Below, piece by piece: positions 10,874-12,680 of a DNA stretch of 15,648 nt (the first letter of the stretch is position 1; the number at the start of each line of letters is the position of its first letter). The notes beneath the pieces were generated by a model. It made no database searches, had not been told where the DNA came from, and saw only the letters and a program-made list of their open reading frames with translations. The stretch comes from Chlamydiia bacterium (GTDB lineage Bacteria; Chlamydiota; Chlamydiia; Chlamydiales; RGXB01): positions 1-15,648 of the forward strand of contig JBEIFH010000024.1 in assembly GCA_040382515.1 (NCBI GenBank), written 5' to 3'. Made by a program: the position numbers and the translations under genes.

Positions 10874-12509
10874 GGGAAGCTCTGGGCATTTTGGTGCTGG
10901 GTTTAGGGGCAAAAAAGAAGATTCTGGCTCTGAAAAACCAGACCAAAGAATTCAATGGGTCGTTTTGGCCGCCCTCGGGAAACTTGAAGATATCAATAGG
11001 CATCTTAAAAAAGAGACTCCCACCCTTAAGGACAGGCTAATGGCTATAAAAGCTGCAGCAAGGGCGGGTTTCCCTCAAATAATTAAGAGCCTTCTGGTTA
11101 ACTTTGAAATGCCTACAAATGAACGAATTAGAGCGATACTTGTCGCAGTTAAAAATGGGCATAGGGGTCCTGTAGAGACGCTTTTAAATGGTTTCGAAAT
11201 ACCTAAAGATCAACGAATTAGAGCGATACTTGTCGCAGCTGAAAATGGGCATACGGGTCCTGTAGACGTGCTTTTAAATGGTTTCGAAATGCCTGCTGTT
11301 GATTGTGGTAAAGCAGTAAGATTGGCTGCAAAAAATGGGCATGTCGAAGTGATAAAAAGGCTTTTTGAGGCAGCTGTAATTAAGGATACTGACGTAGATT
11401 ATGCATTTTTGTATGCAACACAAAATGGGCACAAATCTGTTATTGAATGGCTTCTTGAAAAGCATCCTGCTATTCCTACTCCACTACGAGGCAAGTTTGT
11501 GGAAATAGCTGCAGGGAATGGGGACAAATCCATTGTCGAAATGCTCCTGGTAAATCCCGAGGCGATAAGCAAAGCTTTGCGTGGTAATGCGATTAGTAAA
11601 GCTGCAGCAAATGGTCATCTGGCTGTACTCCAGAGGCTTCTTGCTGATGATAATCAAGTTCTCCCTCAATTTCGTGGTGAAGCTATAGTAGCAGCTGCAA
11701 AAAATGGTCAGTGCGAAGTAGTACCAAGTCTTATGCGAGATTCTCACGGCAATATCATAGATATTGAAGAAGAGCATCTTTTAAAAGCCTTAGATGCTCA
11801 CAAAAATGCAACACCGGGACAGATCCCTTACAATATTGGGAGGCTTGGAACGGTATTTATAGAAAACGCAAGGAATCTCTCACAAGATTTCATATTAAGA
11901 TTATATGATCTTATGGACGATGAAGATGGGGTTCTAAGAATACCTATTTTCGGCCATCTGATGGCTGAGCCTTTATTCTATTTGGAAAAATACTGCGAAA
12001 AAGGCTTTCCGGAGGTGAGATTTGTGGATCCTACTATGCATGGTCAAGACGTATCTGATCAAGTTTTAGCCGATTTTATTTTATTGAATTTACAGAATAA
12101 AAAAATCATCTCAGTCGGTGAAAATGAACGATTTTTAAGTGCGAAATTGCCTGTTGCCGAAGAAACATACCAACAAGAAGGTTTATTCCGTTTTGGTCAA
12201 TTACTGACTCACTTATACACGTTATTTATAGAACAAGGGATACGAATCAGGGTACCCGAAAATATTCTAAATCCGGATATCCTATCTGCCATAGGTAAAA
12301 ATCCTGAAAATATGCTTGATTCTATAGATTGTACCCCTTCAATAAGGGACATATGGAAAAATACCCCAGAAGAAGAAGACAAGTCCTGGAAAGAATCTGT
12401 AATAGGGGCCATTCATTGTATGGAGCAAGGGATAGGTCCTGTGTTGAAAAAAGCAATCGAAGAGGGGGTGAATCCGACTCCGACTTGGATTTTTTTTGGT
12501 AGAGATTAG
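10857..12509 (+). CDS. Ankyrin-repeat protein with a degenerate, C-lobe-less HECT-like C-terminal region
   Basis: Repeated AAxNGHxxVxxxLL motifs. The C-terminus aligns with the HECT N-lobe region of 14103-15485 (LMRD..G, PL.YL, LPVAE, FG.LL, IL.P, IGK, WKN, WK.SVI.A, FFG). Start ATG 10857 follows GGGGGG. Confidence 0.88.
   Translation: MSSGIGGSSGHFGAGFRGKKEDSGSEKPDQRIQWVVLAALGKLEDINRHLKKETPTLKDRLMAIKAAARAGFPQIIKSLLVNFEMPTNERIRAILVAVKNGHRGPVETLLNGFEIPKDQRIRAILVAAENGHTGPVDVLLNGFEMPAVDCGKAVRLAAKNGHVEVIKRLFEAAVIKDTDVDYAFLYATQNGHKSVIEWLLEKHPAIPTPLRGKFVEIAAGNGDKSIVEMLLVNPEAISKALRGNAISKAAANGHLAVLQRLLADDNQVLPQFRGEAIVAAAKNGQCEVVPSLMRDSHGNIIDIEEEHLLKALDAHKNATPGQIPYNIGRLGTVFIENARNLSQDFILRLYDLMDDEDGVLRIPIFGHLMAEPLFYLEKYCEKGFPEVRFVDPTMHGQDVSDQVLADFILLNLQNKKIISVGENERFLSAKLPVAEETYQQEGLFRFGQLLTHLYTLFIEQGIRIRVPENILNPDILSAIGKNPENMLDSIDCTPSIRDIWKNTPEEEDKSWKESVIGAIHCMEQGIGPVLKKAIEEGVNPTPTWIFFGRD
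11103..11294 (+). repeat. Intragenic 90-nt tandem repeat (about 2.1 copies) encoding 30-aa ankyrin units
   Basis: Copies start at 11103, 11193 and 11283. Copies 1 and 2 are 79/90 identical by manual comparison. Confidence 0.93.
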
Positions 12510-12511
12510 CC

Positions 12512-12533
12512 GGGCTCATAGCCTATTTTTTTT
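12512..12533 (+). terminator. Possible weak intrinsic terminator
   Basis: GGGCT-CAT-AGCCT stem followed by A and T8, immediately after the stop codon. The stem is short. Confidence 0.3.
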
Positions 12534-12680
12534 GATTAGCTTAGCGCTTAGCTCTCAACTCAAACTTTTACCCTTCAGTACTTATCGTAGCCGATAATCC
12601 TTAAATCAAAAGGCTTCCCAAAACAGATCCTTTTATGGGGGTATTTAGGATGTAACTCCATTTCTATCAGTGCTTAAAAA

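Follow-up and report, generated by a model that had tools for sequence, protein, structure and literature searches.

A gene on the forward strand at positions 10857-12509 of the window (the whole 15,648-nt contig C24 of assembly G000, a genome assembly of 1.39 Mb that is 93% complete) encodes a 550-aa protein in which an ankyrin-repeat array is joined to the N-lobe of a HECT ligase and ends there. This HECT-N-lobe-only pseudoligase gene, which we refer to as gene A, has the fold of a HECT N-lobe, is truncated at the hinge through a single evolutionary event, is conserved among species with a dN/dS below 1, and persists independently of the ligase gene beside it. The explanation that we prefer, and to which we would give about an even chance, is that gene A specifies an old, lineage-specific, non-catalytic pseudoligase effector whose ankyrin repeats bind a host target and whose N-lobe large subdomain serves, still folded, as a cap or a surface for binding. 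The binding, secretion, and expression that this explanation calls for are predictions.

The neighborhood of gene A is, by its predicted products, effector-like: along the window, an RHS protein, a patatin, and a TcdA/TcdB-type glycosyltransferase are followed by two ankyrin genes, gene A and gene B. The RHS-repeat protein (3-5051, +) carries at its C-terminal tip an HSEG motif that we take to be hydrolase-like. The patatin gene lies at 6027-7193, and its linkage to gene A is kept in genome G002 and in metagenome loci; the locus of genome G004 (L020:5542-12723) has five patatin-type copies downstream of gene A. Two small paralogous ORFs at 7269-7670 and 7655-8014 (-) match no Pfam family above cut-off, and the pair also precedes gene A in G002 and L061. 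Divergent from gene A, 8809-10674 (-) encodes a 621-aa protein with a TcdA/TcdB-type DXD glycosyltransferase domain (Pfam PF04488, PF12919). A further ankyrin gene in two pieces lies elsewhere in the genome (C9:45633-47786), and its C-terminus, by motif, presumably resembles an NEL ligase domain. Genes A and B are preceded by a shared leader, the copies of which (10791..10850 and 12684..12743, both +) are 85% identical; a genome search found no third full copy elsewhere in G000, and a promoter scan scored no sigma-70 site in the copy upstream of gene A. Freshwater and lake metagenomes are among the sequencing runs that match the stretch.

The gene A product begins with a Gly/Ser-rich segment (residues 1-29; 10857..10943, +) that is predicted to be disordered (pLDDT < 50) and may hold a secretion signal; together with the FHIPEP export-gate gene present in the same genome, this is consistent with a type III secreted effector. 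The ankyrin array follows (residues about 28-292; 10938..11732, +), identified by Pfam Ank_2 (E 5e-22), fold matches, and alignment, and in the alignment its repeat number differs among orthologues, always in frame. The HECT N-lobe remnant occupies residues 356-550 (11922..12506, +; hhalign against a chlamydial HECT profile, 96.6%, E 5.9e-10). A preliminary description of this DNA, made from its letters alone, had proposed a HECT N-lobe, and the fold search agrees, with HECT domains making up all 16 of the best 16 matches; the VIA-align partners are E6AP 497-740, HACE1 551-789, and HUWE1 4015-4255. Codons 276-325 (11682..11831, +) are 85-93% identical in nucleotide sequence to the G004 and G002 alleles, most other windows being about 45-75% identical, and over codons 301-325 the same codon is used at 20 of the 21 positions with the same residue. 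Identity this high over about 150 nt of otherwise distant alleles suggests a recent exchange between species.

The features on which HECT catalysis depends are gone. The frame stops at the hinge between the lobes (12507..12509, +), leaving neither a C-lobe nor its C-terminal catalytic Cys. The acidic DxGG loop, whose D and second G are invariant in 30 chlamydial HECT domains, has decayed to GQDVSDQV (12042..12065, +); it is missing in all aligned orthologues and is the least conserved segment of the A family, at 11-22% identity. The acidic loop of Rsp5 (Asp495) is reported to be required for ligation and to work with the C-lobe (PMC3738095). If the gene A loop is its positional equivalent, as we infer, then the lowest conservation is found where it would be expected, there being no C-lobe left to work with. 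The preliminary description was thus right that the protein stops at the hinge and is catalytically dead. Just 3′ of the stop is a weak terminator-like hairpin with a T-run (12512..12534, +); the terminator scan found 5 candidates against 2.1 +/- 1.5 in shuffles, and the folding z of this hairpin is a non-significant -0.33.

The truncation is old, of single origin, and not the product of strain-specific decay. The A family as gathered has at least 44 proteins, many of them near-identical or partial; of the 44 listed, 36 (from four species) end at the hinge, five end near residue 483, three are N-terminal fragments, and none enters the C-lobe. Where homologues carry a taxon name, it is Chlamydiae or Chlamydiia. 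Eight homologues of 522-595 aa, 44-99% identical, all terminate no more than a few residues from a common FF motif, and in five orthologues the stop at the equivalent position is TAG, TAG, TAA, TAA, and TGA. Among the 400 genomes of the order that were scored, A-type genes occur in four species of one genus (G000, G002, G004, and G006), hence in three of the six other genomes of that genus; none was found in G001, G003, and G005, which are 89, 72, and 94% complete. Only two 50%-identity representatives of the family were found among 1.84 billion proteins. In a tree rooted at its midpoint, with distant outgroups on long branches, the A family groups as a single clade with support 100/100, and its stem, 1.3 changes per site long, lies next to the full-length sisters. 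No remnant of a C-lobe was detected downstream of the stop in six A loci, in a search that recovered its two controls (E 1e-13 and 1e-32), and genome G000 has no free C-lobe ORF. Elsewhere in the order, two unrelated HECT genes (L072:1292-2284 in G203 C4 and L075:867-1955 in G202 C13) are likewise cut at the hinge or shortly ahead of it, and no C-lobe follows; both retain DAGG.

A frameshift at the hinge, of the kind that had been suggested as the source of the stop (a 2-nt loss), fits the codons found there: E-I-T/N of the sister ligases can be seen out of frame in the hinge DNA, so that, to judge from a few bases, a frameshift may have begun the truncation. However, such an event would be ancient, and C-lobe DNA is missing in all six loci. 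The suggestion of a strain-specific, decaying duplicate does not hold, because the hinge stop is conserved across species, the family is a single clade, and selection on it is purifying; neither full-length orthologues nor a truncation confined to one strain was found. Nor is the neighbor the closest paralogue: the closest full-length relative of gene A is P0063 of G004 (31% over 557 columns, E 3e-58), and a P0063-type gene is absent from G000. A plausible history is that a P0063-type ankyrin-HECT ligase gene was duplicated in the ancestor of the genus, that the duplicate was cut at the hinge and its C-lobe DNA lost, that the loss of the catalytic DxGG loop would have come next, along with that of the central part of the E2-hosting subdomain, and that the remaining ankyrin and N-lobe protein would have been retained by moderate purifying selection.

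Selection on gene A is real and moderately purifying, but it is relaxed relative to that on the sister ligases. The dN/dS of the N-lobe is 0.27 (193 codons, five sequences), with neutrality rejected (2dlnL 55) and the synonymous distance on the deep A branch near saturation, and that of the ankyrin region is 0.34; three full-length sister paralogues give 0.10 for the N-lobe and 0.18 for the C-lobe, and a neighboring outer-membrane-like gene has a best value of 0.05, the lowest tested. The ankyrin value lies within the span of 0.29-0.63 that has been reported for families of ubiquitin-related effectors in chlamydiae (PMC4209131). Both deep A lineages have the hinge stop, the deletion in the small subdomain, and the loss of the DxGG loop, so the long branch between them probably postdates the truncation. 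Homology to an enzyme, loss of the catalytic motifs, and retention by selection are therefore all found in gene A, as in a pseudoenzyme. Against this, damaged alleles circulate; besides the five proteins that end near residue 483, they include gene calls on long contigs (P0016, P0017, P0023) that contain the N-lobe only.

Gene B (12748-15485, +) is an ankyrin and HECT ligase gene in two pieces: an ankyrin region (12748..14091, +) that reaches a stop after a frameshift, and a second piece (14103..15485, +) that by profile match has the last ankyrin, a linker, and a complete HECT domain (N-lobe 14496-15137, C-lobe 15138-15482, DFGG 14613-14624, Cys codon 15372-15374, all +). This second piece matches a profile of 28 distant chlamydial HECTs at E 6e-45, whereas Pfam HECT alone stays below cut-off (E 0.04), and both lobes, the DxGG loop, and the H-x-C motif are present in gene B and its family. 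The split, near 14085-14102 in G000, recurs in contigs of runs X1 and X6, of which X1 may be the source sample, and is not present in X5 and X9; close strains have whole gene B forms of 921-922 aa. The frameshift is a real allele of some populations. Two other HECT genes are found in G000, on C8 and C37. Ligase remnants lie near gene A in relatives (L058:525-1202, L020:2700-2950, L021:3624-4250, and L023), some formed by an internal deletion that brought N-terminus and hinge together, others being C-lobe-coding fragments with stops; we interpret them as the probable debris of birth-and-death in a tandem array. A sister-type ligase also occurs on a 4.6-kb contig assigned to a genome of another family (L066/L069, G247 C47), by transfer or mis-binning.

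It is important to weigh the preferred explanation against others that account for part of this evidence. The idea that an assembly error or a recent strain-specific nonsense change created the stop draws on the T homopolymer that precedes it, and has virtually no chance of being correct: the identical stop in four independent runs, its position in four species, and the missing downstream C-lobe DNA refute it. It is unlikely, but deserves to be taken seriously, that gene A is a slowly decaying relic, useful after its truncation and now dispensable in many strains as a tandem effector array turns over by birth and death. Such turnover is reported for chlamydial effector families (PMC4209131), and ligase remnants are found throughout the array (G004, G002, G005, and L058). 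In addition, dN/dS among close species is 0.53-0.64; damaged gene A alleles occur in both lineages, including an in-frame deletion of 28 aa that takes out the final helices of the N-lobe on several contigs (P0002, P0026-P0028, P0019); and of the pair of unrelated HECT genes mentioned above that lack their C-terminal part, the one checked (L072) is a singleton in the protein collection. Nonetheless, a relic would hardly be expected to keep an intact frame and a fixed stop while amino-acid sequences diverged by about 50% and synonymous sites came close to saturation, with neutrality rejected, nor to outlast the catalytic genes beside it in G000, G002, and L058.

Two further alternatives give the N-lobe a partner within the ubiquitin system. 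HECT N-lobes bind E2 through their small subdomain and can bear a ubiquitin exosite (PMC3077247, PMC13196369), and the cut removes exactly the catalytic lobe, so it is conceivable that the N-lobe binds a host E2, E2~ubiquitin, or ubiquitin, with the ankyrins placing this sink beside a host pathway. The small subdomain does retain its first helix (43-57% identity in four of five comparisons). The E2 sequestration raised by the preliminary description is nonetheless unsupported, as the E2-hosting small subdomain (12297..12386, +) is the most eroded part of gene A, about half the eukaryotic length and cut further in some family members. Its anchor span is 54 aa, compared with 76-77 in the sister ligases, 100 in HUWE1 and Tom1, and 63-131 in 28 distant chlamydial HECTs, for which the median is 103; P0062 has about 41. 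The structural model places two short helices and no beta-hairpin there, and 75 of 244 residues of the E6AP N-lobe have no partner in gene A. We consider such a decoy improbable. More doubtful again is that the gene A product damps a paralogous full-length ligase, whether by binding it or by competition for its substrate. A full-length-type ligase gene does adjoin gene A in G000 and G004, with a leader common to both genes in G000, and the gene A ankyrins are homologous to those of P0063; moreover, effector-effector suppression pairs are often adjacent (PMC5199130), and TRIM pseudoligases can repress active paralogues (PMC13591260). However, the pairing with an active neighbor that had been proposed finds no support, since gene A remains whole beside a ligase that is split (G000), that survives nearby as a remnant interrupted by a stop (G002), or that has both an internal deletion and a stop (L058), so that co-retention, as in a metaeffector pair, is not seen. 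The ankyrin piece of gene B is barely similar to gene A (E 3e-4), G000 lacks both a P0063-type gene and a separate C-lobe, and the DxGG loop, through which a C-lobe would presumably be engaged (PMC3738095), is gone; the HECT genes on C8 and C37 may yet supply a more distant partner.

The pseudoligase effector that we favor has parallels among known proteins, none of them exact. With the eukaryotic HECT E3s (HUWE1/Tom1, E6AP, the NEDD4 family, and HACE1 with its ankyrin and HECT layout) gene A shares the N-lobe fold, and it is built like half of HACE1, to which the full-length model aligns over residues 28-789, at an rmsd of 17 A; in contrast to these proteins it is bacterial, has no C-lobe, catalytic Cys, or DxGG loop, and has half the small subdomain. 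TRIM RING pseudoligases and other pseudoenzymes are likewise ligase-derived, catalytically dead, and proposed to be scaffolds or regulators (PMC13591260), but they lost activity through point changes or RING loss, whereas gene A is a HECT domain halved at the hinge; our literature search found no N-lobe-only HECT pseudoligase. The chlamydial F-box/BTB expansions (PEX/NEX) are ubiquitin-related effectors with birth-and-death turnover and a similar dN/dS range, and differ from gene A in their domains; the word "HECT" is absent from the main text of that report (PMC4209131). Legionella metaeffectors are adjacent effector genes of which one may regulate the other (PMC5199130), an arrangement from which gene A departs in not being retained together with its neighbor.

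The parent family from which gene A arose may be the larger news. A tailored profile picks out HECT domains fused to ankyrin, LRR-like, or other repeats, often several per genome, in 102 of the 400 genomes from this order; Pfam HECT gives matches in 46 of 301 genomes across the phylum, over cut-off in 33 of them, and in none of the 30 genomes of family f35, which may be the Chlamydiaceae to judge from genome size. The chlamydial parent profile matches HUWE1 (E 5e-28) and E6AP (E 4e-22) over both lobes, and automatic annotation already tags some members as HECT (P0068). By these comparisons the family consists of true eukaryote-type HECT domains, apparently uncharacterized; according to a 2026 review, eukaryotic HECT ligases have no identified counterparts in bacteria (PMC13720258). 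Three bacterial effectors, SopA, NleL, and MavJ, employ HECT chemistry or are reminiscent of it. SopA and NleL mimic HECT without relatedness (PMC13720258), whereas the chlamydial family shares sequence homology with eukaryotic HECT; Legionella MavJ appears in a published list as HECT-type on the strength of profile homology (PMC7542358).

Within this family, gene A is a natural, selected half-HECT that reveals what evolution keeps once a ligase loses catalysis, and parent ligase and pseudoligase together make a ready comparison for the role of an N-lobe without its C-lobe. This invites the questions of how small a small subdomain can be and still engage an E2, and how dead ligases are recycled as binders by intracellular bacteria. 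We offer, tentatively and as a possibility rather than an expectation, that environmental chlamydiae possess a large family of eukaryote-type HECT effectors from which one genus made the first natural HECT pseudoligase, its ankyrins addressing a host target and its remodeled N-lobe binding and shutting down a component of the host ubiquitin system, which may be an E2, ubiquitin, or a ligase.
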